This document shows positions 2,014-34,954 of a stretch of 44,077 nt of DNA, piece by piece. A program made the position numbers and the translations under genes. The notes below the pieces were generated by a model. It worked only from the letters and a program-made list of their open reading frames with translations. It had not been told where the DNA came from and ran no database searches. Where the stretch lies: sequence record JN984867. One strand, written 5' to 3'. The DNA is from Shigella phage EP23. Position 1 is the stretch's first letter; each line of letters starts with the position of its first letter.

Positions 2014-2024
2014 GGAAACCGACC

Positions 2025-3545
2025 ATGACCGTTAACGTTGACAACCAGCACCCACTCTATGCGCGCATCGCGCCAGAGTGGAAAATGATTCGCGATTGTG
2101 TAGCAGGGGAGCGCGCCGTGAAGGCGTGCGGACCATTGTATCTGCCACACCCAGCCAGCGGCGACACCACAGACCCGAAATCGCGTGCGCGCTATAAGGC
2201 ATATAAGCAACGCGCTGTCTTCCTGAACGCCACCGCCCGCACACTGAATGCCTTGTTAGGCGTCGCCTTCGCCAAACCGGTGAGTATGGACCTTTCCGGG
2301 GCAATGGCTGACCTGATCGAAGACGTAGACGGCAGCGGGATGCCCCTGGCGCAACTCCTGCGCGGCGCTATGTCGGAAGTGCTGCAATCGGGCCGCGCAG
2401 GCTTTATGGTGGACTATGACCGCCAGGCGCATTTTGACGAACTGGGTAACGTAGTGCCGCAGACAGCCGCTGAAATGGCGGCACACCGCCCGCTTATCCG
2501 CCTGTATACGGCTGAACAGATCATCAACTGGCGGCAGACCCACGGGGTCGACACGCTAATCGTGCTGAAGGAAACGGACGAAATCAGCACCGAAGACCAG
2601 GACGACTTCGCAAACCACGAGGTGACCATCTGGACCGAGCTTCGCATGATTGACGGCAAGGCACACGCCCGCCGCTGGTTTTACAATGCGGACACGTCAG
2701 AAGTGCAAATGGACTTGCCGCGGGGATTCACCCGAACCGACCTTGTTCCACTGGTGGATGCTGACGGTAACGCGCTTACTCAACTGCCATTTTGCTGGTG
2801 TGGTGCTGTGGACAACAACGCGACGCCGGACGCCGCACCGCTGGCGGATATTGCATCCATCAACATTAAGCACTACAACGCCGAAGCAGACGTCGCCGAG
2901 ATTGCGCACATTGTGGGCCAACCTACACTTATTGCGACCGGTCTTACCCAATCATGGGCTGATAAAAACCTGAAGGGTGGCATCGCACTAGGCGCGACTA
3001 AGGGCGTTATCCTGGGCCAGAACATGGACGCTAAACTGCTTCAGGCTGAGGAGAGAAACCTGTCAGTTGCGCTGTGTGAGCGACGCGAATTGCAAATGGC
3101 TAAACTGGGCGCGGCCCTGGTCGAGAAGGGGACCGCACCTAAGACGGCAACTGAAGCGGCCTACGATGCGCAGACTGATAACAGTATCCTGTCACTGATT
3201 GCCGGTAACGTTGAGAAGGCATTCAACCGTGCGCTGCAAATCGTCAAACTGTTCACTGGCGACACCGCAGATCAACGCGTAACGCTGAATAAGTTCTACA
3301 CCGAAATCACGGTTGACGCACAGCTTATGACCGCGATGATGGCTGGTGTGCAGACCGGTACGGTCCGTCTGGCGGACTTTATCAAGTGGATGATGGCCCA
3401 GGGCGTCATTGATGACTCGCAAACCGTTGAGCAGGTGGAAGACGAATTGCGAAATCAGAATCCATTGCCTCAAATGTCCCCGGATGCGGTAGAATCTACC
3501 GAAGAAGACCCGGACAAGGTAGCGGACAATGGCGAAGACAATTAA
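2025..3545 (+). CDS. portal protein
   Basis: 506 aa ORF following terminase, acidic C-terminal tail, typical size and position. Confidence 0.8.
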   Translation: MTVNVDNQHPLYARIAPEWKMIRDCVAGERAVKACGPLYLPHPASGDTTDPKSRARYKAYKQRAVFLNATARTLNALLGVAFAKPVSMDLSGAMADLIEDVDGSGMPLAQLLRGAMSEVLQSGRAGFMVDYDRQAHFDELGNVVPQTAAEMAAHRPLIRLYTAEQIINWRQTHGVDTLIVLKETDEISTEDQDDFANHEVTIWTELRMIDGKAHARRWFYNADTSEVQMDLPRGFTRTDLVPLVDADGNALTQLPFCWCGAVDNNATPDAAPLADIASINIKHYNAEADVAEIAHIVGQPTLIATGLTQSWADKNLKGGIALGATKGVILGQNMDAKLLQAEERNLSVALCERRELQMAKLGAALVEKGTAPKTATEAAYDAQTDNSILSLIAGNVEKAFNRALQIVKLFTGDTADQRVTLNKFYTEITVDAQLMTAMMAGVQTGTVRLADFIKWMMAQGVIDDSQTVEQVEDELRNQNPLPQMSPDAVESTEEDPDKVADNGEDN

Positions 3546-17253: not shown

Positions 17254-17861
17254 CCACGTTTAAATTGTACGGCGTCTTAGGGCGTCGTTTTGGTAAAGTG
17301 CACAAGCTGGACTGCTTCACACCAGGCGAAGGCATCACCGGCCTGTGCGTTAAGTTACCTGGCTTACAGGACTTTCTAATGTCGGCCCACCTGGAAAACA
17401 TTATGTTCAAGGTGCGCAAGGGCAATCACACAATGACCGGATACGACGAGTTGGGCGAGTTCCACGGCGACCGCGTAGTGACCATCGCGCCGGTTATGAC
17501 TGGCGCAAAAAGAGGACTGGGTCAGTTGCTGGCAGGCGTAGCAATCGTGGTGGCGTCATTCTACACCGGCGGGCTTGCTACTGCCGCTTTTGGTGCTTCA
17601 GCCGCGACCGCTGCCGCTATTGGCACAGCAACTTTCTCGTTCGGGATGTCAATGGCGCTGGGCGGCGTTATGCAATTGCTGTCGCCACAGCCGAAAGGAT
17701 TGCAGACACGGCAGGACGTGGACAACAAAGCGTCGTATGCGTTCGGCGGACCGGTAAACACGACAGCGCAAGGTACCGCACTTGGTGTATTATGGGGCGA
17801 GCGTGAGATCGGCGGCGCTATTATTTCAGCCGGAATTGTAACCGAGGATTTTAACGAATGA
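17244..17861 (+). CDS. tail assembly protein, lambda gpI-like
   Basis: 205 aa with Gly/Ala-rich hydrophobic C-terminal half; overlaps K-like stop and J-like start. Confidence 0.6.
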   Translation: MAMTTFKLYGVLGRRFGKVHKLDCFTPGEGITGLCVKLPGLQDFLMSAHLENIMFKVRKGNHTMTGYDELGEFHGDRVVTIAPVMTGAKRGLGQLLAGVAIVVASFYTGGLATAAFGASAATAAAIGTATFSFGMSMALGGVMQLLSPQPKGLQTRQDVDNKASYAFGGPVNTTAQGTALGVLWGEREIGGAIISAGIVTEDFNE

Positions 17862-20800
17862 CGATTATCTACGACGTCACGGGCCATAAAGGCGGCGGCG
17901 CAAAACCGCACACCCCACAGGAGACGCCTGACAGCCTGCATTCACTGGCTAAAGCCCGCATCTTGCTAGCACTGGGTGAAGGTGAGTTTGAAGGCATCCC
18001 GACCGACAACGAATTACGGCAGCGCGTTTATTTGGACGGCACGCCGATCCAGAACGCCGACCGATCCGAAAACTTCCCCGGCGCGCGCGTGGAGTTCCGC
18101 CCAGGCACACAGCACCAGGACGTTATTCACGGATTTTCCGCGGTGGAAAGCGAGCAGACAGTGGGTGTAAAACTGGAATACGGCACGCCGTGGGTGCGCC
18201 AGATTAACGACACCAGTTTGGACGCCGTGCGCATTCGAGTCGGTATACCGGCCCTGTACACTAACGAAGATAATGGCGACCTGGTGGGCGGGCGCATCGA
18301 CTATAAAATCGTTGTGTATACGGATAACGCCGATCCGCGCGAGTTCCGCTTCGCTGCCGTTGGAAAAACAATGTCGCTGTACGAGCGCGACCACCGCATC
18401 GAGCTACCGTCTAACGTGAATACCGGCTGGCGCGTGGAGGTGCACCGCTTAACGGCTGATTCCACCTCTGCGAAAGTGGTCAATGATATCCGGGTGCAAT
18501 CCATTACGGAGATTATCGACGCCCGCCTGCGATACCCGCTAACCGCGCTGTTGTTCGTGGAGTTCGACGCTAAGGCTTTCCAGAATATCCCGCGCGTGTC
18601 AATCAAGTGCAAAGGTCGCAAGGTGTTGGTCCCGAACAACTACGACCCGATTAATCACACCTATTCGGGGGACTGGGATGGCACGTTTAAACGCGCATGG
18701 ACGGATAACCCTGCGTGGCACTGGTACGATATTTGTATTACTGAGCGCTTTGGCCTCGGTCGTCGTATCAAACCGCAAATGCTAAACCGATACGCGCTTT
18801 ACCAGGTTGCGCAGCGCTGCGATCAGCTGGTCAGCGACGGCAACGGCGGGCAGGAAATCCGATTTAAGAATGATATGTACATCCAGTCGCAGACCGACGC
18901 CTGGACCGTGCTTAAGGATTTAGCCGCTATCTTTGCCGGTATGACCTGGTGGGGCAATCAGATGTTAAATATCGTCAGTGACCAGCCGGTAGCCGCGGTA
19001 TCGCACACTATCACAAACGCCTCGGTGATTGATGGTCGATTCGACTACGCATCCGGTAGCCAGAAAACCCGGTATTCCACGTTCGCGGTAGCATACGGCA
19101 ACCCGAAGAACCACTACGAAGACGCCATCGCAACGGGCCAGCGCGTCGAACTGGTGCGCCGCCATAAGATTAACCGCCTCGATATTACGGCGATCGGCTG
19201 TACGCGTGAGTCCGAAGCGCAACGCCGCGGGCACTGGGCGCTAATCTCCAACCAGCTTGACCAGCAAGTTAGCTTTAAGGTTGGCATGGAAGGGCTGTTT
19301 TTTATCCCGGGAAGCGTAGTTGCGATCGCGGATACTAATATTTCCGGCGGCTTCGAGACACGCGGCGGACGCCTGTTGTCAGATCCAGGGACGCGTACTG
19401 TGCTGAACACGGACAGCGAAATCACGTTCCGCCCTGGCGATAAATTCTTGGTGCGCACCGATAGCGGGAATGTGGAGACTCGCGAGATTGCCAGCGTCAA
19501 CGGCAACAAGGTTACGCTGAAAACAGCACTGAACGCTGACCCGATTCCCGATCAACCGTTTTGCGTTGATGGCGACGATATCCAGTTGCAGAAGTTCCGC
19601 ATCACCGACCTGGAATATGACGACGCTACCAGCACTTTCTCGGTGCGCGGGATTGAATACAACGACAGCAAATACGATGCCGTTGATAATGGCGCTCGCC
19701 TTGATCCGGGCATCTTCACGCAAGTTCCTGACGGCGTAATGAAGGGGCCGGAGTCGGTAATCATCACCCCGTCGCAGATCTCATCGCAAGGCCAGCTAAT
19801 CACCAACGTGGATATTGTTTTCCCGCCGGTGAAAGATGCCGTTGTGTACGAAATCCAGTGGCGGCGCACCAGCTTGCAGAATATGGAAATCCAGTGGGGT
19901 AACGACTGGGTGAACCTTCCACGCACGGCATCGAACGGCGCGCACATCCCTAACGTGTTCTCCGGCAACTACCAGGCACGCGTCCGCGCGATCGGTATGG
20001 GTGAGATTTCATCCCCGTGGGTGGAGTCCGCCATCACGCCGGTGGAAGGTCGCCTCGGCGGGCTTAACGCGCCGATCATCACCAACGCGATTTCTGGCCT
20101 CCACCAGATTTTGTGGAAGTGGAACCATAATAACGCCGCGACGGATATCTCATACACCGAGCTTGAAGTGCGCAAGACCGGTGAGACGGAATGGAAATTT
20201 CTTACCAACGTCCCATATCCAGGGGCGGAGTATGCACAAACGTCTCTGGAGTTCGGTATCTATCAGCAGTTGCGCGCCCGCGTAGCGGATAAAATCGGCA
20301 ACCTGTCGGACTGGTCGGCCCCGTTTGAAGGGCAGGTAAGTAACAAAGTTGACGAGTACATGAAGGGGCTTGACGATGAGTTCTTGACTTCTGAGGATGG
20401 TAAACGCTTCCAGGAAGCGATCGACACCATGCCGCAAGGCATTTACGAGGCCATGCTCACCGACGCGCAGCAAATGTTCAACGCCCGCGCTGAGTACCAG
20501 GGGATTTATGCGGAAATCAAGGTGGCGTATAACGTGGCAGCAGACGCCCACCAGGCCGTCGCGCAACTGGAGACGTTGATCGGCACGCGCCTTGACGAAG
20601 CTGAAGCGGCGATTCACACGTTGCAGACGGCGCAGAGTACGCAAGAGCAGGCCTTCGCCCGGTATCAGCAGACTGTTGCCGCTAAGTTCTCGGAGCAGGA
20701 AGCCGCTATCCAGCAGGTACAGACGGCAACGGCGGACGTAGCTGGCGCACTGGCGGAGTATAAGACCCAGGTCGCAGCACAGTTTGGGCAGCAGTCTGCC

Positions 20801-21676
20801 GCTATTGAGCAGAAGATGACGTCTTCGTTTAACCACTCCGGTGGTAGCGCCACGTACAGCCTTAAGGCGGGCGTGACGTATAACGGGACTTACTACGATG
20901 CCGGTATGCAGCTTTCCGTCGTGACGTCGGGCAACGCGGTTAAATCACGCATCGCATTCAAGGCGGACCAGTTCTACATCATGCACCCGTCCAACGGCAC
21001 GCTGTCATCGGCGTTTATTGTGGATGGGGGACAGGTGTATATAGACACAGCCCGCATCAAGAACGCGTCCATAAACTTCGCGCAGATCACGGACACGCTG
21101 CGGTCAGATAACTTCGTAGCGGGATCACGCGGGTGGAACCTGCCTAAATCTGGTAATGCGGAGCTTAACAATGTGACAGTCCGCGGCACCGTTTATGCGA
21201 ATGATGGTGAGTTCCGGGGCACGGTTTATGCAAGGGATGGGGTATTTACCGGAACGGTCGAAGCCACCAGTTTTGTCGGTGACGTTGCAAATATGTGTGT
21301 TATCGGTGCGAAAGCAATACCCAACACAGCCAGGAATGGATCAAGGTCGTGGTCGGTGACTTTCAACGACTCATCCAATTCAACAAAACTCAAAGACTTT
21401 GTATTGCTGTTAAGCTACTCACTGGTCGGGTACACCGCAAGCCAGTCAAGCCGCATTGCTATTACCGCCAATATTGGCGGGAAAGTAGTCTCAAGGACTA
21501 TTGAACGAGCGGCAAGCGGAAACGCAATCCATACAACGATTCCTTTAGCTGCGAAAGGTGTAACGGCGGGAAGTGTGACAATTACTGTGAAAGAAGAGTA
21601 TACAAACGTCTACGGCAGCACATTGCACCCGTCTGTAATTTTAATGACTCGTGGGACAGGTAGCTGGTCGCAATAA
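17858..21676 (+). CDS. central tail fiber / host specificity protein, lambda gpJ-like
   Basis: 1272 aa, largest virion ORF, follows I-like gene; C-terminal ~130 aa distinct and Ser/Thr-rich. Confidence 0.85.
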   Translation: MTIIYDVTGHKGGGAKPHTPQETPDSLHSLAKARILLALGEGEFEGIPTDNELRQRVYLDGTPIQNADRSENFPGARVEFRPGTQHQDVIHGFSAVESEQTVGVKLEYGTPWVRQINDTSLDAVRIRVGIPALYTNEDNGDLVGGRIDYKIVVYTDNADPREFRFAAVGKTMSLYERDHRIELPSNVNTGWRVEVHRLTADSTSAKVVNDIRVQSITEIIDARLRYPLTALLFVEFDAKAFQNIPRVSIKCKGRKVLVPNNYDPINHTYSGDWDGTFKRAWTDNPAWHWYDICITERFGLGRRIKPQMLNRYALYQVAQRCDQLVSDGNGGQEIRFKNDMYIQSQTDAWTVLKDLAAIFAGMTWWGNQMLNIVSDQPVAAVSHTITNASVIDGRFDYASGSQKTRYSTFAVAYGNPKNHYEDAIATGQRVELVRRHKINRLDITAIGCTRESEAQRRGHWALISNQLDQQVSFKVGMEGLFFIPGSVVAIADTNISGGFETRGGRLLSDPGTRTVLNTDSEITFRPGDKFLVRTDSGNVETREIASVNGNKVTLKTALNADPIPDQPFCVDGDDIQLQKFRITDLEYDDATSTFSVRGIEYNDSKYDAVDNGARLDPGIFTQVPDGVMKGPESVIITPSQISSQGQLITNVDIVFPPVKDAVVYEIQWRRTSLQNMEIQWGNDWVNLPRTASNGAHIPNVFSGNYQARVRAIGMGEISSPWVESAITPVEGRLGGLNAPIITNAISGLHQILWKWNHNNAATDISYTELEVRKTGETEWKFLTNVPYPGAEYAQTSLEFGIYQQLRARVADKIGNLSDWSAPFEGQVSNKVDEYMKGLDDEFLTSEDGKRFQEAIDTMPQGIYEAMLTDAQQMFNARAEYQGIYAEIKVAYNVAADAHQAVAQLETLIGTRLDEAEAAIHTLQTAQSTQEQAFARYQQTVAAKFSEQEAAIQQVQTATADVAGALAEYKTQVAAQFGQQSAAIEQKMTSSFNHSGGSATYSLKAGVTYNGTYYDAGMQLSVVTSGNAVKSRIAFKADQFYIMHPSNGTLSSAFIVDGGQVYIDTARIKNASINFAQITDTLRSDNFVAGSRGWNLPKSGNAELNNVTVRGTVYANDGEFRGTVYARDGVFTGTVEATSFVGDVANMCVIGAKAIPNTARNGSRSWSVTFNDSSNSTKLKDFVLLLSYSLVGYTASQSSRIAITANIGGKVVSRTIERAASGNAIHTTIPLAAKGVTAGSVTITVKEEYTNVYGSTLHPSVILMTRGTGSWSQ

Positions 21677-21682
21677 GCAAAT

Positions 21683-21709
21683 AGCCCCTCGCTTGAGGGG
21701 CTATCTTTT
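21683..21709. terminator. bidirectional rho-independent terminator between J-like gene and convergent lipoprotein gene
   Basis: AGCCCCTC-gctt-GAGGGGCT hairpin flanked by A/T runs on both sides. Confidence 0.7.
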
Positions 21710-21950
21710 AATAATCAATGACGCAGTTTGATGGGGAACCAATCCTGCGGTGTTCGTGGCTAATCTCCTGGCACCACTGACCGGTATATGGTAGCTTTTC
21801 GGTATCGTAAACCAAAGACCCGTCCTCATGTCGCTCAATAGGCTGAGGTATTACACCGGAATTTGGAACGCCTGTGCTTAAGCCGCTGCCACATGCCGTC
21901 ATCAGAAGGCACGCCGCGGGTATTATCAGATTTTTGATTAAAGTTTTCAT
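21708..21950 (-). CDS. small lipoprotein, candidate receptor-blocking superinfection-exclusion protein (Llp/Cor-like by position)
   Basis: ATG 21950 after AGGAG RBS; signal peptide MKTLIKNLIIPAACLLMTAC with lipobox L-M-T-A-C; 80 aa; sits between J-like and fiber genes on opposite strand. Confidence 0.55.
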   Translation of the reverse strand: MKTLIKNLIIPAACLLMTACGSGLSTGVPNSGVIPQPIERHEDGSLVYDTEKLPYTGQWCQEISHEHRRIGSPSNCVIDY

Positions 21951-22031
21951 GTTATCATCTCCTGTATTGGGTTGAGTTTTAGTATTACACCGCTCAACCA
22001 AGAATGCAACCAATTTTATGAGGATTTAGCT

Positions 22032-23660
22032 ATGGCAGCGGGTACGCTCTCCGTAACGAACAATAGCAAGGCTGTAGTAGGGGTTGGCACAACGTTTACC
22101 GAGTACAAGGCTGGTGACTTCTTATCGCTGGTGGTTGGGCAAGTGCCTTACACCGTGGCGATCGCGTCCATCGAAAGCGCAACCGCGCTCACACTGGTGT
22201 TGCCGTTCGACGGCCCAACGGCGACGGGTCTGGCCTGGGACGGCATCAAACGTGACACCATGTCATTGGCGACGATGGGCGTAACCGTCCAGGCGCAAAA
22301 AGCATTGCGATTGATGATCGCAGATGAGAACAACTGGCGCGCAATCTTCGGAGAAGAAGAGGAAATAACAGTGACGTTACCTAACGGGCAGGTTATGCAG
22401 GGCATGTCATGGGGCTATCTGTCGCAGCTAATGAAGCAGATCGACCCCGTAGAAATGCGCAACCTGCAACAACAGGCCGAGACGGCAAAAAACCAGGCTG
22501 TTACTGCGAAGGGCCAGGCAGAATCAGCGCGCGATGCGGCTAATACAGCAAAAACTGGCGCGGAGAACGCCCGCAACCAGGCCAACACCGCACGTGATCA
22601 GGCCAACACCGCCAAAACAGGCGCAGAATCAGCGCGCGATGCGGCTAATACAGCAAAAACTGGTGCGGAGAACGCCCGCAGCCAGGCGCAAGGGTATCGC
22701 GACGAAGCAGAGCAGTTTAAAAACCAAATCAACCCATCACAGTTCATGCTTAAGTCGCAAAACCTTAGCGACGTAGCGAACAAAGATACGGCGCGGGACA
22801 ATCTGTCACTAGGCCGCACTCAGCGTGCGCAATTTGAGGGGGTTGACCTGTCTAAAAGCGACTGGCCCGGCTTAAGGTTTATTACAACCAGCATGTCACC
22901 AACAGAGGTCGGCTATCGCGTTGTCTTTGAGCATGATTCGAGTGATAACCGCATGGCGCTCTACTGGCGAAATGGCTCAGATGCCAATGGGCAGGCCGCC
23001 GTCCACTTCACCGCGCCTGCCAGCGGGCAGACGCGATTTATTGCATACAAGGAAGAAGTAAACCTTCCAGAAATTACAGGCTGGGGCGTAGCGGCTCCCT
23101 CGCAAGGACCGAGGGCGACGAACGCCACAAACCTTGCGCCGGGGCTTTATTGGGGTACCGTCGCTGACGTCGGCAATCCAATTTCAGGAACACTCGGCAT
23201 GTCGATGCTTCAAACATCAGGATCATCCGCCAATTACCGCTGCCAGTTGGTGTTTCAGGATAGCGCGGGCGGGGCGATGTATCTCCGTTCCAGTAATAGT
23301 AGCGTTTTTGGTAACTACAAGCAGGTAACTACCTCTGCGGTGTCGGATGAGCGCCTGAAAACTGTCCGGGGAAATCTTAATCTAGAAGGTGCGCTGGATA
23401 ACATAAACCGAATGGATTTTAAAATTTTCTCGTTCCTGAGTGATGGGCCGGAACGTAGCTACCGACGCGGCGTTATCTCGCAGCAGATCCGCCAGATTGA
23501 TAAGCAGTACACGAAAGAGATCGGCGGGTACTATCATCTTGATCAGACACCAATGCTACTGGACGCCCTAGCGGCAATTAAAGCATTGCGGGCGCGTGAC
23601 GAGGCTAATAAAGCAGAGATTGCAGAGTTAAAAGCGGCGATTGCAGAATTGAAAAAATAA
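22032..23660 (+). CDS. L-shaped-type tail fiber with internal repeats and C-terminal intramolecular chaperone (peptidase S74-like) domain
   Basis: ATG 22032 after GAGGA; repeated ANTAKTGAENAR units; C-terminus SDERLKTVRGNLNLEG...NRMDFKIFSF resembles S74 autoproteolytic chaperone region. Confidence 0.75.
   Translation: MAAGTLSVTNNSKAVVGVGTTFTEYKAGDFLSLVVGQVPYTVAIASIESATALTLVLPFDGPTATGLAWDGIKRDTMSLATMGVTVQAQKALRLMIADENNWRAIFGEEEEITVTLPNGQVMQGMSWGYLSQLMKQIDPVEMRNLQQQAETAKNQAVTAKGQAESARDAANTAKTGAENARNQANTARDQANTAKTGAESARDAANTAKTGAENARSQAQGYRDEAEQFKNQINPSQFMLKSQNLSDVANKDTARDNLSLGRTQRAQFEGVDLSKSDWPGLRFITTSMSPTEVGYRVVFEHDSSDNRMALYWRNGSDANGQAAVHFTAPASGQTRFIAYKEEVNLPEITGWGVAAPSQGPRATNATNLAPGLYWGTVADVGNPISGTLGMSMLQTSGSSANYRCQLVFQDSAGGAMYLRSSNSSVFGNYKQVTTSAVSDERLKTVRGNLNLEGALDNINRMDFKIFSFLSDGPERSYRRGVISQQIRQIDKQYTKEIGGYYHLDQTPMLLDALAAIKALRARDEANKAEIAELKAAIAELKK
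22519..22686 (+). repeat. two near-identical ~64-bp direct repeats (period 104 bp) inside the fiber gene
   Basis: gcagaatcagcgcgcgatgcggctaatacagcaaaaactgg(c/t)gcggagaacgcccgca(a/g)ccaggc at 22519 and 22623. Confidence 0.85.
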
Positions 23661-23665
23661 AAGAG

Positions 23666-23687
23666 GGGGCCACACGGCCCCTTTTTT
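23666..23687. terminator. bidirectional rho-independent terminator after fiber gene
   Basis: GGGGCC-acac-GGCCCC hairpin, T6 downstream and A-run upstream. Confidence 0.7.
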
Positions 23688-24261
23688 AGTTTGAGTTTTC
23701 CCAGTCCATTTTGCGCCGCACCAGCGGGCTTTCGTAATATTCCTTCCCCTCCACTTCCAACAAGGGCCAATCGTTCACAATCACGTAGGGTTCCGCAATG
23801 TCCTCAATTACGCCGTGCGCGCTGTGCTGCCCGAATGACACACCAACCAGGATAACACCGGCAACTCGACGTGTGAGGTACTCGTGCGCGCAACGTGCCT
23901 CAACCAGTCCGCGACGGATGCCGCTGGTGGCTTTCACCTCGTAGGTCCAAACGGCATCGATCATGTGCTCACGGTAGTCGGGGCCGGATTTAACCTTGCG
24001 CTTACCGACCATAATAATATCGCCGCGGTCGATGGTGTTGGCGCTAAACAGGCCAGTACGCATTAGCAAGCCTTGCGGTATGCAACTACGCCCGCCTGCC
24101 TGCCCCTCAAGGTACATGCCCGCAAACATCTCGCCAAGCACACCGACGAGACGGCTTTGTTTGCACGCGTCTGACTTTAAACGCCATTGATCAAACTCGA
24201 TGCTTGCTAACATTGCCGCCAGGTGGAATTGTTTACCGGTTATTTCAAATTCTCCGAACAT
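23686..24261 (-). CDS. hypothetical protein
   Basis: 191 aa ORF, GGGGGA RBS before ATG 24261; last gene of leftward early operon. Confidence 0.45.
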   Translation of the reverse strand: MFGEFEITGKQFHLAAMLASIEFDQWRLKSDACKQSRLVGVLGEMFAGMYLEGQAGGRSCIPQGLLMRTGLFSANTIDRGDIIMVGKRKVKSGPDYREHMIDAVWTYEVKATSGIRRGLVEARCAHEYLTRRVAGVILVGVSFGQHSAHGVIEDIAEPYVIVNDWPLLEVEGKEYYESPLVRRKMDWENSN

Positions 24262-28831: not shown

Positions 28832-29110
28832 CTATGCGACCAATTCAGCAACCAATAAATCGCAGTCGGATATGTTGTCGATAACGCGAACGTCAGCACC
28901 GCGGCGGGCCATTCGCTCATGTTCACGTACCTGGTGCGGCTTCGGTTTTCCTCCGGGGCGCTTCACTTCGACGAACACTATTTTGCCGTTGATGATAATA
29001 ATCAGGTCGGGCGCACCTGCGCGCCCCTCCCATGCCAGTTTTCGGCAGAATCCGCCAACATCTTTCACCCGTCTCATCAGGTGGCTTTGAATCTTGCCTT
29101 CTGGTGTCAT
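28832..29110 (-). CDS. VRR-NUC domain nuclease (PD-(D/E)XK)
   Basis: GAPDLIIIINGKIVFVEVKRPGGK core; start ATG 29110 overlapping polymerase stop. Confidence 0.55.
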   Translation of the reverse strand: MTPEGKIQSHLMRRVKDVGGFCRKLAWEGRAGAPDLIIIINGKIVFVEVKRPGGKPKPHQVREHERMARRGADVRVIDNISDCDLLVAELVA

Positions 29111-32100
29111 TACTTGCGGTAGCGATACATGCAATCGCCCTCTGCGGCAAGTGGGAAGCCTTTCGCCCAAACCGGCAGGTCGCACATCAGCGCGCACAAC
29201 TCCTCGGTTGTGTAGTCGTCGGTATCCGGCACTTCGGTTATCAGCTCATCGTGTACGGAAAGTACGATCTCATACCCCGCAGCTTCAACGCCAGGCATGG
29301 ACCATGCGAGAATATCGCGGCACAACGCCTGTACGATGTTTTCCGTCAGTTTGCCGCCGTAGGTATACTGGAATCCCCACTGGCGCGTCGTCTGATTCTC
29401 GCCCTGATATTTAATGCGTGTGCTGGTGCGCTTCTTGCCGGTGTCTTCGTCGATCTCGGTCGTGACAGACAGCGCGATGCCAGGGTAGCTCATGATGCGC
29501 CCTGACGGCAACTCAATTTTAAGCCACCACCCCGCCGCGTTCGGGTCGTCGCGCTCCTCGTCGAAGGTCGGGTCATGCTTCGCCTTCGTTCGAACAATTT
29601 TGAGCGCTTTCCTGCCATCCGGGCGAACGTTCGCGCCAGCCCAGTACGCTTTGCCCGGATTGCGGATCGCGCAGAGCACCGCGTCCTCCAGTTCGGCCCA
29701 AAAGGCTACCGTCATCGGGTGAGACTCACGCCACATACGTTTGATCGCGTCACACGTCAGCCACACGTTTTTCGGCAGTATGTAAGTTGGGCGCTCGTCT
29801 TTCTTGCCAGGCTTCGGCGGGCGCTTCTCCTCGTTAATGCGAGCGTACTCATAACCCCGCTTCGCCGCCGCCCAAATGTGATCCGGGAATGTGCCCTTCA
29901 TGACGTCAGCCATAGTGTAAAGGTCGAGGCCCAGGTTTTTAGCGAACTGCAAGAACGCCGCGACGCCGCCACCATAGCCCAGGCCAAGCTCGCAGTTATG
30001 CGCCACCAGAAAACCAGACTTAGACGCAATAAGGAACCGGTTTCCGTCTTCCACATCAATCAGGTCGTAAACCGGCTCGCAATAGGTTAACTTCCCGTTC
30101 CAGTTCAGCAATGCGGGTAAGGGCTTCATCGTACTTTCTCTGAAGCTCGGGCACGCTGCGCCGGTTACGGCAGTTTTCCGAACGGCTGACAAACCGAAGG
30201 TTTCCAGGCTCATAGTCGCCGTCTGTATCGATCCTGTCCATTTCGAAGTCTGGCTTATCCCAGCCGTCCAGCGTTTGAACGTAGAGAAGAAACGACCTTT
30301 TATCTCTCTTCCATTCGTCACATACGGCAATCCCACGACCGCCGTAGTTTTTATACCCTTTGGCGCGGGGGTTTGTCGTTCGTGATATTGCCGCTGACAG
30401 CCGGTTGAGTAGCCGCGTTCTGTGCGCATCGTCTGGCATTGCGTCATCGTAGCAAAAATACTGTTTACGATACCGCTTTGTCGCTTCAATTGCGCAGAGG
30501 TTGCATTGGGATGTTTTACCCCTTCGGACGTTGTCATACCCGACGCGTCCTGGCATCGCTCCGCAATCACATTGGGCCAGCAGTTGTCTGTGACCCTGTC
30601 GTTTTGGTAATTCGCGCAGGATAACCAGGCGTCCATACCTCTCGCCAGGGCGCGGACCATCGTGCACCTGTCTGAAACGAGTTGCCTTGCCTCCTTCCAT
30701 GAATGCGTCAAGATTTTGTGGTCTTCTGTCATCAAGACCCCGTCCACGTCTATCACTGGTTTCCACCCCATAAGGTGCGCGCCTTTTGTACTCACCCATT
30801 TTTCGCCGTTCCATACTTTATCCGTTGATGTTACGGCCATAATATCCTTGAACCCGCCATTGGTCAATACTTGGGTATGGCGGTGCAAGCAAGCCTTACC
30901 GATCTGGCGTAAGTCCTTGCGGTTGGCTTTAATGTAATCCGGGTCAAGGCCGAACATCTTACCGGCAGTCTCGCAATAGATATCGCGACCGGCCTTAAAG
31001 ACCATTAACGCTGTTTTCTCGCCAGCGATCCAGGCAAGTCCACGCCCTTCCACATTGGAGTAGTCCGCTACGACAAACTTCTTGCCCTTCGCCGGAATAA
31101 TGCACCCGCGAACGGTCGAGGCCGTTAGCTTCGATATGTCATACGCCCAGTGTGCGGTCCCGCGTAACAGGGAGTTGATGCCGTTGGTGAGCATGTGCGA
31201 CCGGACCCAAAACGAGACGTCGCTTTCACCCTCGCGGCGTTTAATCTTCCCTTCGTGGTCGTCGCTGTACTCGCCACGCGCCAGGTTTTGAGGCTGGAAG
31301 CCTTTGCCCGCCCAGCGCAGCGTGCGCTTTGCGCCGCCATACTGAAGACACCCACGGCGGCGACCATCTGCGGATAAGCCGTTAACTAGCGGATTGTACT
31401 TAGTCGATGCCGTTGATGACGCCCCGAGGCGCATTTCGATAAGCGCTTTGCCTTCGTCGGGGAAGTCCGGGTCTTCAAGCAGGTCGTTAAGCGTGGATTT
31501 CTGCGCGTTGTGGATCGTGAACGCCGGGGCGATATCACGCAGGATTGGCAGGAAGTCATTGCCTGTCAGCTTACCGCCAAATCGCTCCCAGGCTTCTTCC
31601 TTCAATTCTTCCTTATGCGCCTGCACCGCTTTGATCGCGGCGTTCGCCAGGTCAACGTCGACGTAGAAGCCGCGGTCGTTAATCAACTGGTCGATGAGCA
31701 GGATTTCATCTTCCTTAGGCGAGTTTCCCCAGTCCGGTATGCGCCAGTAGACTTCACGCATTGCGATAATATCCAGCGCGGCATAGCGCAGAAATTTGGC
31801 CCATTCTTCCGGGTGAGTCTCGCGAGTGTAGCGGCGGATTTTGTAGGTCTTAGGGGTAGGCTTACAGAATCGGTTAATCAGCGCCTTGCCTGCCTTATCC
31901 TTCGCGTGCTCTGCGTCAACGCCCAGAACCTGGCACTGCATATCGAGGCTACCGGGCAGCGCGTGGCGAAAGGCCATAATCATAGTGTCTTCGATCTGGC
32001 TTACCGGCAGGTCAATACCCCACTTCTCGCGGATAACCAGGCGGTCAAACAGGAGGCCGTTAGCCATCACTATTTTAGCCTTCTTGCGGGATACCCGGCG

Positions 32101-32298
32101 GAGCGCCTTGCGCAGTTCACGCGGCATTGTGGGGGATTCAGTGGCATCCCATGTCTGCACGCGGCCCTCGTCTATGGCGTAGGTGCAAATCATAATCTCT
32201 GTGGTTGGGTGCTCCGCGTAGGCGTACGCCCCAACTTTCTTCAGGTCCACCCCGCTAAATGTCTCGGTGTCGAGAAACAGGCGTTCGAAGTCTTTCAT
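29110..32298 (-). CDS. family A DNA polymerase with 3'-5' exonuclease domain, interrupted by an intein in motif B
   Basis: Exo motif FLDTETFSG, motif A ADYSNVEGR, motif C LSVHDEL; motif B split as RQIGKA / intein / CELGLGYGG. Confidence 0.9.
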   Translation of the reverse strand: MKDFERLFLDTETFSGVDLKKVGAYAYAEHPTTEIMICTYAIDEGRVQTWDATESPTMPRELRKALRRVSRKKAKIVMANGLLFDRLVIREKWGIDLPVSQIEDTMIMAFRHALPGSLDMQCQVLGVDAEHAKDKAGKALINRFCKPTPKTYKIRRYTRETHPEEWAKFLRYAALDIIAMREVYWRIPDWGNSPKEDEILLIDQLINDRGFYVDVDLANAAIKAVQAHKEELKEEAWERFGGKLTGNDFLPILRDIAPAFTIHNAQKSTLNDLLEDPDFPDEGKALIEMRLGASSTASTKYNPLVNGLSADGRRRGCLQYGGAKRTLRWAGKGFQPQNLARGEYSDDHEGKIKRREGESDVSFWVRSHMLTNGINSLLRGTAHWAYDISKLTASTVRGCIIPAKGKKFVVADYSNVEGRGLAWIAGEKTALMVFKAGRDIYCETAGKMFGLDPDYIKANRKDLRQIGKACLHRHTQVLTNGGFKDIMAVTSTDKVWNGEKWVSTKGAHLMGWKPVIDVDGVLMTEDHKILTHSWKEARQLVSDRCTMVRALARGMDAWLSCANYQNDRVTDNCWPNVIAERCQDASGMTTSEGVKHPNATSAQLKRQSGIVNSIFATMTQCQTMRTERGYSTGCQRQYHERQTPAPKGIKTTAVVGLPYVTNGREIKGRFFSTFKRWTAGISQTSKWTGSIQTATMSLETFGLSAVRKTAVTGAACPSFRESTMKPLPALLNWNGKLTYCEPVYDLIDVEDGNRFLIASKSGFLVAHNCELGLGYGGGVAAFLQFAKNLGLDLYTMADVMKGTFPDHIWAAAKRGYEYARINEEKRPPKPGKKDERPTYILPKNVWLTCDAIKRMWRESHPMTVAFWAELEDAVLCAIRNPGKAYWAGANVRPDGRKALKIVRTKAKHDPTFDEERDDPNAAGWWLKIELPSGRIMSYPGIALSVTTEIDEDTGKKRTSTRIKYQGENQTTRQWGFQYTYGGKLTENIVQALCRDILAWSMPGVEAAGYEIVLSVHDELITEVPDTDDYTTEELCALMCDLPVWAKGFPLAAEGDCMYRYRK
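29995..30891 (-). mobile_element. intein (299 aa) in DNA polymerase motif B
   Basis: Insert starts with Cys (codon 30889-30891), ends ...LVAHN followed by Cys (+1); Hint-like blocks CLHRHTQVLTNGG, TEDHKIL, VYDLIDVEDGNRFLIASKSGFLVAHN; excision restores R-x3-K-x3-LG-x2-YG. Confidence 0.8.
30056..30814 (-). CDS. HNH homing endonuclease encoded in an alternative frame inside the intein
   Basis: YGRLVIL...CDCG...RGKTSQCNLC and GYKNYGGRGIAVCDEW...DRIDTDGDYEPGNLRFVSRSENCRNR match phage HNH/His-Me finger proteins; frame differs from polymerase (30814 mod 3 = 1 vs 32298 mod 3 = 0); true start may be an internal Met (~30700). Confidence 0.7.
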   Translation of the reverse strand: MERRKMGEYKRRAPYGVETSDRRGRGLDDRRPQNLDAFMEGGKATRFRQVHDGPRPGERYGRLVILRELPKRQGHRQLLAQCDCGAMPGRVGYDNVRRGKTSQCNLCAIEATKRYRKQYFCYDDAMPDDAHRTRLLNRLSAAISRTTNPRAKGYKNYGGRGIAVCDEWKRDKRSFLLYVQTLDGWDKPDFEMDRIDTDGDYEPGNLRFVSRSENCRNRRSVPELQRKYDEALTRIAELEREVNLLRAGLRPD

Positions 32299-32523: not shown

Positions 32524-33198
32524 TTAACGGCGGCGACGTTTACGTGGCGCTTCGTCTTCGTCGTCGTCTTCGTCATCGTCATCACGACGTTTTGACTTTT
32601 TGGACTTACGCGGGCTTTCATCTTCGTCATCGTCGCCCAGGTCTTCGTCGGAACATGAAGACCCGCCACCGCCGAAGGCTTCGCCGTCATCACGGAAGCG
32701 CATACCCAGCAGACCACAGCCTAAGCCTTTGCCGTTGGTATTGTTCCAGGCCCAAATATCTAAGGAAACGTTGCAATAGCAACCGGAATAGATTTCCTTC
32801 CCTTCGATTTCGTCGCCGTCGATGGTCAGACCCTGCTCCGTCTGCTTCTCGCCTTCGGAAGTCTGGATGATCGGCTGTTTGAACGATTTGGCGTTGATGT
32901 ACAACATGCCTTCGAATTCTTCGGTTACTTCGTCGCGCTCGTCACCGTCGCGAACTGCGCATTCCTTAGAATCCTGGGCGTAGTGGCGGTCCATCCACTT
33001 ATCAGCATTCTTCTCGGATTTCAGCTTGTCGGTTAGCACTGCGCGCGCTGCCGCTTCCACTTTGTCCACCTGCGGATCTTCTTTATCAAGAAGAATCACT
33101 GCACGGTATGCCGGTTTTTGTCCATCCTGTTTAGGGGTATCACGTTCCCAAATTTTAAGGAAACATACGCGCACATTTTTCAGGTTGACTTTAGCCAT
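32524..33198 (-). CDS. ssDNA-binding-like protein (DUF2815-like, putative) with poly-acidic/basic C-terminal tail
   Basis: ATG 33198 after GAGGA; C-terminus DEDLGDDDEDESPRKSKKSKRRDDDDEDDDEDEAPRKRRRR; adjacent to Cas4-like nuclease and polymerase. Confidence 0.45.
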   Translation of the reverse strand: MAKVNLKNVRVCFLKIWERDTPKQDGQKPAYRAVILLDKEDPQVDKVEAAARAVLTDKLKSEKNADKWMDRHYAQDSKECAVRDGDERDEVTEEFEGMLYINAKSFKQPIIQTSEGEKQTEQGLTIDGDEIEGKEIYSGCYCNVSLDIWAWNNTNGKGLGCGLLGMRFRDDGEAFGGGGSSCSDEDLGDDDEDESPRKSKKSKRRDDDDEDDDEDEAPRKRRRR

Positions 33199-33254
33199 TT
33201 TCCAATTCCTCATTTTCACATGTATCGGGGTTATTGGAAGCCACCCCGTTCGGC

Positions 33255-33288: not shown

Positions 33289-33531
33289 TCAAGCATTTTC
33301 ATTAAAAAGATTTCGGGTAACGTAGTTGGTCGCGTTCTCGATCCAGCTTAACGGCGGGCGGTTGATGTTCTTCTCCACCCAATCGACGGCAGCTTCGCTA
33401 TAGCCGTCATCCAGCCAGCGGGTCGGATGTCTAATCATCCATGCCACCATTAACACGCCTTGCACACAATGCAGGATAAAGCCCAGCGCGCCGATAACAA
33501 ACATCAATAAGATTGCGAATACTTTATTCAT
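33289..33531 (-). CDS. small membrane protein
   Basis: 80 aa, hydrophobic segment AILLMFVIGALGFILHCVQGVLMVAWMI. Confidence 0.4.
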   Translation of the reverse strand: MNKVFAILLMFVIGALGFILHCVQGVLMVAWMIRHPTRWLDDGYSEAAVDWVEKNINRPPLSWIENATNYVTRNLFNENA

Positions 33532-34954
33532 TGCTTAAGTCCTCGTCAGTAGCTACAGACCACGCAGGGCGCGGGTCGTCGATGGGTGCTAATACCGGTT
33601 TAGCTGGTGCGCGCGTGATTTTATCACACAGCTTCGCCCATACTTTCGGCTTCTCGTCCTTCAATACCTTCTCGGCATCAGTAGGGCTGAGTAATGTTTC
33701 TTTGTACATCACATCGCGCTTGATCCGGGCCTTCGTGAAGATTTCAATCACTTCGCTTTCGTCCGCCCACTTGCGAATCCCTTCCTTACCTGCAACCATC
33801 TTGAGGCCCAGCGATTCGCCGTCGCCCGCCATCACAGCCTTGAATACCGCGGACTCGATAGCCTTGATGTGCTGGCGCATTGCGTCCAGGCCTTCATAAG
33901 CCTTGCGCAGTTCCGCGGCGGTCATAGCGCCGGGGGCCGCTTCTTTCTTGCCACGCTTCGCACGTCGTGCCGCTTTGCGGGCTTCGCGGGCCATATTGCG
34001 GTCGTGATTGGCGCATTCTTCCTCTGTCGCAATACTCACGTCGTCGCCCAGGTCTTCGTCTGTTGCCGTTGGTGGGGTCATCGTGCCGATTGCAGCCTTA
34101 GCGCGGGCGCTACACTGATCCGCAAATCTGCACCACTGACACGCATCAACGCTCGGTCGGAAGTCGGCGCGGGTGAGTCCCTTTTTTCCGCGGGAGTACG
34201 CTTCCAGGGCGGCGATAGCACGCTTGGACGCAAACTTAGCGAATATCTCCAGGGCTTCTACCGAAATATCCCACTCCGACGCCCCGCCGCAATACGGCTG
34301 GAAGATAACAAGGCGCACGGTTGTAATGTCGTACATAGTTTTCAGCTTGCGCAGCAAGCCCAGCGCATACAACATAAGCTGTTTGTTTTCTTTCGCCTCG
34401 ACCTTATGCCGCCCCGTCTTCAGGTCGCCAACAATCAGCATGTACGTGCCGTCGGTCTTCTTCATGACCATGACCATATCGGCAGTACCGAACGTCTTAA
34501 CCCGGTTGCCGTCGATCTCGAAGCCTGAGTGAAGGACGCGGGTCAGATCGGCGCGCATCTCAAGCTGAACAAACTCCGCCACTTCGAGGAGCGGTCGCCA
34601 GTGGTCGATGTACGCGTCGCACTGTTTCACCATGTCGTCGTTGACCAGTACGCCGCCTTTCGGTGCTTTCGGGTGGGCCTTTACCGGCCCCTTACCTTCG
34701 TTCTCTACGTAGCACCCTTTGTACGTCTTAGCGGTTATCAGCTTCTCCCCGGCAATGATGCGGTTTAGCACCACTTCAGATACGGTGTGCATACTCGTAC
34801 CGTTAATCGCCGCTTGCCCGGATTCGTTCGGGATATCTTTTTCCACCACCAGGGCGGCGGGACACCCCATCCATTTTTTAGCACCGGATGGGCCAAGTAA
34901 TGAGTGTTCCGTATTACTACCGGATTGCGTTTTACGTTTTGGTTTAATCGCCAT
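33524..34954 (-). CDS. PD-(D/E)XK exonuclease, Cas4/RecB-like with C-terminal Cys cluster (DUF2800-like)
   Basis: IVGDLKTGRHKVEAKENKQLMLYALGL (D-x-K, QxxxY) and DACQWCRFADQCS cysteine motif; 476 aa. Confidence 0.6.
   Translation of the reverse strand: MAIKPKRKTQSGSNTEHSLLGPSGAKKWMGCPAALVVEKDIPNESGQAAINGTSMHTVSEVVLNRIIAGEKLITAKTYKGCYVENEGKGPVKAHPKAPKGGVLVNDDMVKQCDAYIDHWRPLLEVAEFVQLEMRADLTRVLHSGFEIDGNRVKTFGTADMVMVMKKTDGTYMLIVGDLKTGRHKVEAKENKQLMLYALGLLRKLKTMYDITTVRLVIFQPYCGGASEWDISVEALEIFAKFASKRAIAALEAYSRGKKGLTRADFRPSVDACQWCRFADQCSARAKAAIGTMTPPTATDEDLGDDVSIATEEECANHDRNMAREARKAARRAKRGKKEAAPGAMTAAELRKAYEGLDAMRQHIKAIESAVFKAVMAGDGESLGLKMVAGKEGIRKWADESEVIEIFTKARIKRDVMYKETLLSPTDAEKVLKDEKPKVWAKLCDKITRAPAKPVLAPIDDPRPAWSVATDEDLSNE

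Follow-up and report, generated by a model that had tools for sequence, protein, structure and literature searches.

The lateral tail fibre of Shigella phage EP23: a heptad-repeat shaft, an exchanged tip and a predicted self-cleaving S74-type chaperone

The stretch of DNA analysed here (the window) comprises 44,077 nt of Shigella phage EP23 (sequence record JN984867). By nucleotide comparison, it is the genome of a Dhillonvirus (HK578-like siphophage); the Dhillonvirus phages HH3, SD276 and PC2 are 91-93% identical to it in nucleotide sequence, with 90-93% coverage. The gene at 22032-23660 encodes an ordinary lateral tail fibre of an HK578-like E. coli phage, and the kinds of features found in it are all known. 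The gene is preceded by a minus-strand gene for a Cor-like lipoprotein, whose homologues carry the annotation Cor or superinfection exclusion, and is followed by a convergent minus-strand gene (23686-24261). The hairpin terminator common to the fibre gene and the convergent gene combines a 12-bp stem and a downstream T-run on the plus strand with a matching site on the minus strand. The gene order gpJ, Cor lipoprotein, fibre and convergent gene is the same in phages BEK2-2, EC115, Over9000, TheodorHerzl and StarDew; the synteny of the fibre also holds in a contig from SRR14473614. The features of the locus are as follows:

17858-21676, plus strand: gpJ-like central tail fibre, 1272 aa (Pfam Phage_Tail_Tip, FNIII-A_GpJ and Phage-tail_3; phrog_31)
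21708-21950, minus strand: Cor-like lipoprotein, 80 aa from its ATG, between gpJ and the fibre gene (phrog_12984 'lipoprotein', 2e-39)
22020-22024, plus strand: Shine-Dalgarno sequence GAGGA, 7 nt 5′ of the fibre ATG (read in the sequence)
22032-23660, plus strand: lateral tail fibre gene, 542 aa and a TAA stop (ORF list, phrog_1980, starts annotated in relatives)
22032-22475, plus strand: conserved N-terminal domain, residues 1-148, presumed virion-attachment anchor
22476-22727, plus strand: array of 12 heptads AxxA(K/R)xx, residues 149-232, predicted coiled-coil shaft
22518-22582, plus strand: copy 1 of a near-identical DNA repeat, heptads 3-5 (AESARDA, ANTAKTG, AENARNQ)
22623-22687, plus strand: copy 2 of the near-identical DNA repeat, heptads 8-10 (AESARDA, ANTAKTG, AENARSQ)
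22728-22817, plus strand: linker with the fibre motif QNLSDVANKDTARDNLSLG, residues 233-262
22796-23336, plus strand: putative receptor-binding tip cassette, residues ~256-435, apparently exchanged as a module
23343-23657, plus strand: intramolecular chaperone, Peptidase_S74, residues 438-542, 11.9 kDa (Pfam, PDB profile, Foldseek)
23343-23360, plus strand: SDERLK with the predicted catalytic Ser438 (TCG, 23343-23345) and Lys443 (AAA, 23358-23360)
23544-23654, plus strand: long C-terminal helix of the chaperone, residues 505-541 (AlphaFold2, pLDDT 80-85)
23610-23655, plus strand: 21-nt tandem repeat, 2.1 copies, encoding KAEIAELKAAIAELKK inside the C-terminal helix (Tandem Repeats Finder)
23660-23687, both strands: hairpin terminator common to the fibre gene and the convergent minus-strand gene

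A match of the protein to phrog_1980 'tail fiber protein' (E-value 7e-120) and its locus, which is the lateral tail fibre position in 100+ Dhillonvirus genomes, both bear out the original prediction of a fibre gene. That prediction placed the gene from 22519, whereas its start is the ATG at 22032, with GAGGA 7 nt upstream. A mechanically called fibre ORF opens at TTG 21972, which is an unlikely start; relatives are annotated from the MAAGTLSV start, as at 22032. The 5′ part of the gene matches 109 phage records at 82-91% nucleotide identity. The protein of relative P0001 is 94% identical and is also 542 aa long; the best full-length identity to the fibre of an isolated phage is about 61%. The fibre of phage RuthEpting is a direct homologue of the EP23 fibre.

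Residues 1-148 are nearly invariant in 39 homologues, and residues 1-73 show a weak match to PDB 23gd_B. This N-terminal domain is presumed, by analogy, to be the virion-attachment anchor; the assignment follows from the BASEL paper, according to which only the far N-terminus of such fibres is conserved (PMC8594841). In the AlphaFold2 monomer model (mean pLDDT 52), the anchor and the tip are poorly predicted (pLDDT 52-54), the confident parts being the shaft and residues 440-542 only.

The shaft is built of heptads in which position 1 is Ala in 12 of 12 and position 5 is Lys or Arg in 12 of 12; position 4 is Ala in 10 of 12, the remaining two having Tyr and Phe. Residues 139-232 are modelled by AlphaFold2 as a helix (pLDDT 70-90), and the region has a weak match to Alanine_zipper. 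The heptad pattern and the model point to residues 149-232 as a predicted α-helical coiled-coil shaft about 12.4 nm long. The motif QNLSDVANKDTARDNLSLG of the linker that follows resembles repeated motifs of the short tail fibre PDB 9zd7.

Within the shaft, two copies of a 65-nt DNA repeat are identical at 63 of 65 positions (97%); their starts are 105 nt, or five heptads, apart. The original prediction had described tandem, near-identical repeats of about 64 bp at 22519 and 22623. The repeats are present and near-identical, but the first starts at 22518, 1 nt off, and the copies are not head-to-tail, since they occupy heptads 3-5 and 8-10 of the 12-heptad array. Being interspersed among heptads, they are not called as an array by Tandem Repeats Finder. 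The peptide encoded by each copy is AESARDAANTAKTGAENAR(N/S)Q; the unit ANTAKTGAENAR quoted at first lies within it. Terminator-like hairpins on the minus strand within both copies were judged to be a by-product of the repeated sequence.

The number of heptads varies among relatives, with 3, 5, 7, 10, 11, 12, 13, 14 or 15 being found: 12 in the window, 3 in TheodorHerzl, 7 in Over9000, 14 in EC115 and 15 in most others. In 99 of 100 homologues with 3-15 heptads, the length of the segment is an exact multiple of seven residues. At the junction of an exact 105-nt deletion, the shaft of Over9000 carries a hybrid H2/H7 heptad; a hybrid H1/H10 heptad lies at the 189-nt deletion of TheodorHerzl, and the 105-nt tandem duplication of EC115 includes a chimeric copy. 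These hybrid heptads mark in-register deletions and duplications, including those of the exact 105-nt unit. The repeats had been proposed as recombination substrates that can change fibre length, with copy number in relatives as the suggested check; the variation from 3 to 15 heptads, almost always in whole heptads, and the hybrid junctions agree with this proposal, the length variation being documented between phages. A literature search found no specific account of heptad-number variation in such fibres. The phage also encodes a Gp2.5-like annealing protein and nucleases, which were counted in favour of recombination.

Nucleotide homology to relatives ends at 22795, inside the linker, and is regained at 23337, two codons ahead of Ser438; from 22795 to 23337, no nucleotide homology to BEK2-2, EC115, Over9000, TheodorHerzl or StarDew was found. 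The tip, as judged from these abrupt boundaries, is a cassette swapped as a module. It is also rare: a tblastn search of 50,697 phage records gave no match to the cassette, and an exhaustive HMMER search found only eight matching clusters in 1.84 billion representatives. The tip of P0001 is about 90% identical to that of the window. A fold search with the AlphaFold2 model of the tip (pLDDT ~54) gave no significant match; matches to the N-termini of depolymerases and of T7 gp17, obtained with a profile of aligned tip proteins against the PDB, came from unrelated N-terminal parts of those aligned proteins and were set aside as uninformative on the tip. By analogy, the tip most likely binds O-antigen or another surface glycan. 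Because it is absent from sequenced isolates, its glycan specificity may be new.

The C-terminal part of the fibre matches Peptidase_S74 (PF13884) with 29.6 bits (gathering cut-off 22, E-value 8.8e-7), over residues 438-490 only; among the matches listed, most of 120 homologues have a precomputed PF13884 match. Neither 39 aligned full-length homologues nor 20 diverse C-termini show any change at S438, D439 or K443, and G480 is likewise invariant among the aligned homologues. Searches of the PDB using phmmer with the whole protein or the last 110 aa give weak matches only, and a profile of C-termini is needed. The profile built from the 20 C-termini matches solved intramolecular chaperones, the best being 8hqz_d (1.9e-20), followed by 6f45 (9e-15), MYRF 7dc3 (1.8e-11), GA-1 3gud (5e-7) and T5 pb1 4uw8 (2.7e-3). 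The chaperone region of the AlphaFold2 model has a pLDDT of 70-85; a Foldseek search against the PDB matches it to chains A-C of 7dc3 (E-values of 1.2e-4 to 3.6e-4, probability 1.0, TM-score normalised to the target 0.60-0.65), the next match being endoNF 3gw6 (E-value 0.055). In the PDB profile search, the helical segment 505-541 matches trimeric GCN4-type coiled coils. The domain is without the long hairpin insertion found in many relatives.

The attribution of residues 438-542 to S74-type intramolecular chaperones is supported by both the sequence comparisons and the model. A resemblance of the C-terminus to S74 had been noted originally, with a profile search proposed as a check, and it stands: the Pfam score is above the cut-off, the Ser, Asp and Lys residues are invariant, and the predicted fold is like that of the MYRF ICA. 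The motif SDERLKTVRGNLNLEG named in that context is real, S438 being encoded at 23343-23345, 105 residues from the C-terminus. By analogy, the scissile bond is predicted to be V437/S438, and cleavage would convert the 58.6-kDa chain into parts of 46.7 and 11.9 kDa. The released chaperone chain of GA-1, 3gud_A, opens at the aligned SDERHK. Cleavage of T5 pb1 uses Ser1264 and Lys1269, and the serine departs with the chaperone (PMC4690869); the Ser/Lys dyad of the chaperone family has been described (PMC3742443). Residues R403 and R419 of the EP23 fibre are invariant in the 10-member tip subfamily and are not alignable across all Dhillonvirus tips; they lie 35 and 19 residues from Ser438, compared with 14 for Arg1250 of T5 pb1, which a neighbouring chain contributes to complete the oxyanion hole.

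An S74-like domain might also be kept in the mature fibre, serving as a non-cleaving trimerisation or cap domain. Retention would suit a domain that is shorter than the characterised ones, in which a T5-type active-site arginine cannot be placed with confidence and for which the precomputed Pfam match of the closest relative is flagged as weak. Such a role is nevertheless unlikely, since the pattern Ser-Asp-x3-Lys, invariant in all aligned homologues, is hard to explain without catalysis. Moreover, the uncleaved form of T5 pb1 has its receptor-binding tip masked and cannot block adsorption (PMC4690869), so retention would probably inactivate the fibre; self-cleavage is the preferred reading.

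As for the DNA repeat, it could in principle have arisen only through the same peptide being selected at two places in the shaft, with no recent recombination and no role in shaft length. The whole array is indeed made of similar heptads, and the shared protein pattern alone accounts for the 63% identity of a third in-register segment. The codons, however, argue strongly against this: where the two copies have the same amino acid, 19 of 20 codon pairs are identical, whereas resampling from the codon usage of the gene itself predicts a mean of 7.5, and none of 200,000 simulations reaches 19. An internal control is provided by another ANTAKTG heptad, the third (residue 191), in which different codons spell the same peptide (15-16 of 21 nt identical). 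The two copies differ at 2 of 63 nt in the window, at 7 of 63 in the 94%-identical relative and at 10-11 of 63 in BEK2-2 and StarDew, and the copies from BEK2-2 and StarDew cluster according to position, those of the window according to lineage; the recombinant junctions of the relatives add to this. Protein constraint as the cause of the repeat is refuted by the codon test, and selection for the peptide alone is highly improbable. An artefact of assembly, in the form of a mis-joined or collapsed repeat, is more improbable still. Although repeats can be mis-assembled, this one (65 nt with a 105-nt period) is shorter than typical reads, and both the reading frame and the heptad register are intact; the independent SRR14473614 contig (92% nucleotide identity) has the same 12-heptad layout and 542 aa. 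The artefact was therefore rejected. Since 19 of 20 codon pairs are identical when 7.5 would be expected, the comparison of the two copies shows, at the level of DNA, a recent duplication or gene conversion beyond protein constraint.

The fibres of other Dhillonvirus phages (RuthEpting Bas85 Gp29, TheodorHerzl Bas14 gp27, HK578 and BEK2-2) occupy the orthologous position after gpJ and a Cor-like lipoprotein. They have in common with the EP23 fibre the anchor (82-91% nucleotide identity), the Ala-rich heptad shaft, the linker motif and the chaperone (~85% nucleotide identity), and differ from it in the tip cassette and the number of heptads. RuthEpting Gp29 is described as a combination of a coiled coil, a T5-like tip and an IMC (PMC11990801); the architecture of coiled coil, tip and chaperone is thus already published for Dhillonvirus fibres. 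The T5-like tip fold is a feature of RuthEpting, whereas the model of the EP23 tip gave no fold match. Dhillonvirus lateral fibres serve to cross the O-antigen layer (PMC11990801, PMC8594841, PMC12309495). For relatives, the literature points to O-antigen or a different surface glycan as a facultative primary receptor (PMC8594841, PMC11990801); the EP23 tip itself is without a characterised homologue.

The fibre is also comparable to T5 pb1 and T5-like lateral tail fibres (4UW7, 4UW8 and 8HQZ) as a siphophage side fibre with a C-terminal Ser/Lys chaperone. T5 pb1 binds O-antigen, is dispensable on rough hosts and undergoes autocleavage immediately before the serine. It is a 1396-aa protein whose 133-aa chaperone bears long hairpin 'tentacles', whereas the EP23 fibre has 542 aa and a 105-aa chaperone with only a short hairpin. 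The K1F endosialidase endoNF (3GW6) and the GA-1 neck appendage (3GUD) share with the EP23 fibre the Ser...Lys motif, the C-terminal site of the domain, the terminal coiled-coil helix and the logic of chaperoning followed by release, which is predicted for EP23; in these proteins, however, the domain follows a triple β-helix or a tailspike stalk and not a fibre tip, and the direct sequence similarity of endoNF 3GW6 to the EP23 chaperone is weak (E-value 0.2). In structure, the model comes closest to the MYRF ICA (7DC3), which also scores strongly in the profile search and has the same Ser/Lys dyad, although MYRF is a eukaryotic membrane-bound transcription factor with no tie to host recognition. 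The number of collagen-like repeats in the antireceptors of Streptococcus thermophilus phages, and that of the shaft repeats of adenoviruses, varies by recombination; with in-frame repeated DNA in a fibre shaft, whole units can be lost or gained and the fold kept. Those shafts are made of Gly-X-Y or β-spiral repeats, whereas the EP23 shaft has a 21-nt α-helical heptad with a five-heptad super-unit.

It is very likely that the EP23 protein is a homotrimeric, self-cleaving lateral tail fibre with an anchor, a coiled-coil shaft, a linker, a rare tip and an S74 chaperone, and that its repeats recombine. According to the proposed mechanism, three chains would presumably assemble into a fibre of five modules: anchor, shaft of ~12 nm, linker motif, tip and chaperone. 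The chaperone would nucleate trimeric folding of the tip, as in T5 pb1 and endoNF; Ser438, activated by Lys443, would then cut the V437/S438 bond, freeing the 11.9-kDa fragment and leaving a mature 46.7-kDa fibre with its tip unmasked. The 65-nt repeats are products of recent gene conversion or duplication of a five-heptad (105-nt) unit. Unequal recombination or replication slippage between the copies may add or remove whole heptads, in steps of ~5 nm, and the coiled coil would remain unbroken by such changes because the repeats are in frame and in heptad register. We infer that length variation is ongoing in this phage. A more far-reaching proposal is that the 105-nt unit is a contingency-like module that tunes fibre length: with the copies kept nearly identical by gene conversion, the population would continually shed variants differing by ~5 nm, among which selection would favour those suited to the depth of the host O-antigen or capsule in front of the porin receptor. 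This is unlikely; if it were true, shaft length, together with the rare tip, would constitute a second, rapidly evolvable axis of host range.

The practical value of the analysis of this recombining, probably self-cleaving fibre lies in correct annotation and in hints for engineering, while the understanding of fibre biology is unchanged. The predicted cleavage site defines the mature protein for proteomics and structural work as residues 1-437. For the retargeting of Dhillonvirus phages, the module limits would be the anchor and shaft up to 22795, the tip at 22796-23336 and the chaperone from 23337; these limits are natural recombination points for fibre engineering. The tip may be directed at a glycan outside the range of the coliphages characterised to date, and the series of relatives with 3 to 15 heptads offers a clean natural example of in-register length change in a coiled coil.

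The first 25 kb of the window matches the genomes of Dhillonvirus (HK578-like) E. coli siphophages HH3, SD276, PC2, StarDew and Over9000 with 91–93% nucleotide identity over 90–93% of the length. The fibre protein, 542 aa long, corresponds to phrog_1980 'tail fiber protein' (E = 7e-120); its gene lies where BASEL phages have the gene annotated 'lateral tail fiber protein' and is directly homologous to the fibre gene of phage RuthEpting. The features around it are:

22032–23660, + strand: fibre ORF, with an ATG start and GAGGA 7 nt 5′ of the ATG
17858–21676, + strand: gpJ-like central fibre with Pfam domains Phage_Tail_Tip, FNIII-A_GpJ and Phage-tail_3, upstream of the fibre gene
upstream of the fibre gene, − strand: Cor-like lipoprotein, phrog_12984
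23660–23687: hairpin terminator downstream of the fibre gene, common to the convergent gene

An alternative TTG start at 21972, taken from a mechanical ORF list, is disfavoured, since GAGGA precedes ATG 22032 and the relatives all begin with MAAGTLSV. There is a weak similarity between the start of the anchor (residues 1–73; 22032–22250, + strand) and the N-terminal part of PDB 23gd_B, 'Distal tail protein gp20' (E = 3e-4), as well as phrog_9922 'minor tail protein', which hints at a tail-attachment module in common with these proteins. Only the Cor-like lipoprotein gene lies between the gpJ-like and fibre genes in the window, compared with two or three small genes in relatives.

The two near-identical repeats of the original prediction are real, with coordinates and description slightly corrected. 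A repeat search placed the 65-nt copies at 22518–22582 and 22623–22687, identical at 63/65 positions and 105 nt apart. According to the codon layout, they are heptads 3–5 and 8–10 of an array of 12 consecutive AxxA(K/R)xx heptads (22476–22727), in which Ala occupies position 1 in 12/12 units and position 4 in 10/12, and Lys/Arg occupies position 5 in 12/12. Tandem Repeats Finder did not call the pair because the copies are interspersed in the array and not placed head to tail. The explanation that the copies are alike as a result of encoding the same peptide is ruled out by codon choice: 19 of the 20 same-residue codon pairs agree, where the codon usage of the gene predicts 7.5, and none of 200,000 codon resamplings reached 19. 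The third ANTAKTG heptad uses codons different from those in the copies. Codon identity, heptad layout and the repeat search thus confirm the repeat observation. On the − strand, each copy also contains a terminator-like hairpin (22680–22664 and 22575–22559; GCGGAGAACGCCCGC with a T-run after it), which is most likely a side effect of the repetition.

An AlphaFold2 model built on a 39-sequence alignment, poor as a whole (mean pLDDT 52), contains a single long helix at residues 139–232 (pLDDT 70–90). At 0.148 nm per residue, the shaft of 84 residues is estimated to span about 12.4 nm and the unit of 35 residues about 5.2 nm. The shaft segment was measured in 103 homologues whose flanking anchors could be recognised: in 99 it is 21, 35, 49, 70, 77, 84, 91, 98 or 105 residues long (3 to 15 heptads); the other four comprise one 99-residue segment and three unrelated long outliers. 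These outliers aside, a non-integer shaft occurs in this set only in phage EC115, where one eight-residue unit, AETAKKTG (residues ~150–157; EC115 1501–3459), forms a +1 'stutter' at a recombination junction.

The origin of the length variants was read from the DNA of five relatives. In Over9000 (7 heptads), exactly 105 nt are missing, and heptad 2 is a hybrid of heptads 2 and 7 of the 12-heptad form; in TheodorHerzl (3 heptads), heptads 1 and 10 are joined into a hybrid that marks a 189-nt deletion. In EC115 the 105-nt unit is duplicated in tandem almost perfectly, and the first copy is a chimera of both copy types. In a 63-nt difference matrix, the copies of BEK2-2 and StarDew differ at 10–11 sites and group by position, indicating an old duplication. 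The copies differ at two sites in the window and at seven in the SRR14473614 contig, its closest relative (94% aa identity); the grouping of copies by lineage seen here is the signature of gene conversion or re-duplication. Comparative evidence, namely the hybrid-heptad junctions, the grouping of copies and the heptad-number series across relatives, therefore supports the proposal that recombination between the repeats changes the length of the fibre. The phage also encodes recombination functions, including PD-(D/E)XK and other exonucleases, which could promote events at short repeats such as these:

32524–33219, − strand: Gp2.5-like / Enc34-type ssDNA-binding and annealing protein
33524–34954, − strand: DUF2800 / PD-(D/E)XK exonuclease

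The predicted likeness of the C-terminus to the S74 chaperone was borne out. Pfam Peptidase_S74 is found at residues 438–490 (29.6 bits; gathering cut-off 22), and S438, D439, K443 and G480 are invariant both in 20 C-termini of less than 85% mutual identity and in 39 full-length homologues. A profile built from the 20 C-termini matched solved intramolecular chaperones in the PDB: 8hqz_d (T5-like L-shaped fibre, 1.9e-20), 6f45 (deposited under the title 'Long tail fiber distal subunit', 9e-15), the MYRF ICA domain 7dc3 (1.8e-11), 8jov, 3gud (GA-1 neck appendage chaperone, 5e-7; the chain starts at the aligned SDERHK), T5 pb1 4uw8 (2.7e-3) and, weakly, endoNF 3gw6. Foldseek ranked the MYRF ICA domain first for the predicted model (E = 1.2e-4, probability 1.0, target TM 0.60–0.65), followed by 3gw6.

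The active site of such domains is a Ser/Lys dyad (PMC3742443). In T5 pb1, Lys1269 activates Ser1264 and Arg1250 forms the oxyanion hole; since this Arg comes from the neighbouring chain, cleavage is limited to the correctly folded trimer. The Ser departs with the chaperone, and uncleaved protein is unable to compete for receptor binding (PMC4690869). Cleavage in the fibre of the window is predicted, by analogy, at the V437/S438 bond, which would split the 58.6-kDa precursor into 46.7 and 11.9 kDa. No equivalent of Arg1250 was assigned: R403 and R419 show no variation within the tip subfamily, but they are spaced differently from Arg1250 in T5. The compact 105-aa chaperone of the window lacks the insertion of 10–30 residues that many relatives carry after the GxIAQ strand, ahead of the last helix. 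Its extreme C-terminus, KAEIAEL/KAAIAEL, is encoded by a 21-nt repeat of 2.1 units (23610–23655, + strand); relatives have one or two such heptads more or fewer, so the chaperone coiled coil also varies by whole heptads.

In blastn comparisons with five relatives, homology covers 21937–22795, breaks completely and resumes at 23337, two codons before that of Ser438, extending across the chaperone and the downstream gene. Therefore, 22796–23336 is a swapped module between the NLSDVANKDTARDNL motif and the predicted cleavage site. The exception is StarDew, with a different C-terminal domain and homology resuming only at 23666. The cassette was found only in the SRR14473614 contig (92% nt identity); tblastn gave no match in 50,697 phage records. 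A word-indexed protein search with the tip alone (22794–23342) gave no match despite the presence of the ~90%-identical homologue P0001 in the database, and its short-query negatives are therefore not trustworthy. When 1.84 billion representatives were searched exhaustively with HMMER, only eight clusters matched. Seven were scanned against Pfam: Peptidase_S74 directly follows the tip in six, five above the gathering score and one (P0121) just under it, and Phage_tail_C_2 takes its place in the seventh. Structure prediction with a fold search established no fold for the tip. Lateral fibres of Dhillonvirus have a role in crossing the O-antigen layer (PMC8594841, PMC11990801), and by analogy the tip may bind glycans.

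The gpJ-like protein (1272 aa) is about 120–130 aa longer than its EC115 or TheodorHerzl counterpart. Its last 158 aa (21200–21673) have counterparts of 86–95% identity in just a small number of Dhillonvirus phages (Maverick, PNS1) and are about 71% identical to Seuratvirus gpJ (Seurat, CAjan, slur01, Skure); this part resembles a receptor-binding module that has been fused to gpJ and exchanged across genera. A 1062-aa ORF (29110–32298, − strand) has DNA polymerase matches to phrog_17 (5–470), phrog_7766 (846–1062) and Pfam DNA_pol_A (393–469), split by a phrog_93 'endonuclease' segment (487–858); an intein or a homing endonuclease inserted in frame may account for it.

A literature search found no paper on heptad-number series in such fibres. 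Fibre shafts are, however, well known to gain and lose repeats in register. It is improbable that the length of the shaft serves as a host-range variable that is actively maintained and switches rapidly. RuthEpting Gp29 has been reported as a coiled coil with a T5-like tip and an intramolecular chaperone (PMC11990801), and intramolecular autocatalytic chaperones were noted for the JLBYU60 fibre (PMC12309495); the fibre architecture has therefore already been described. Specific to the fibre of EP23 are its tip allele and the particularly homogenised repeat pair.
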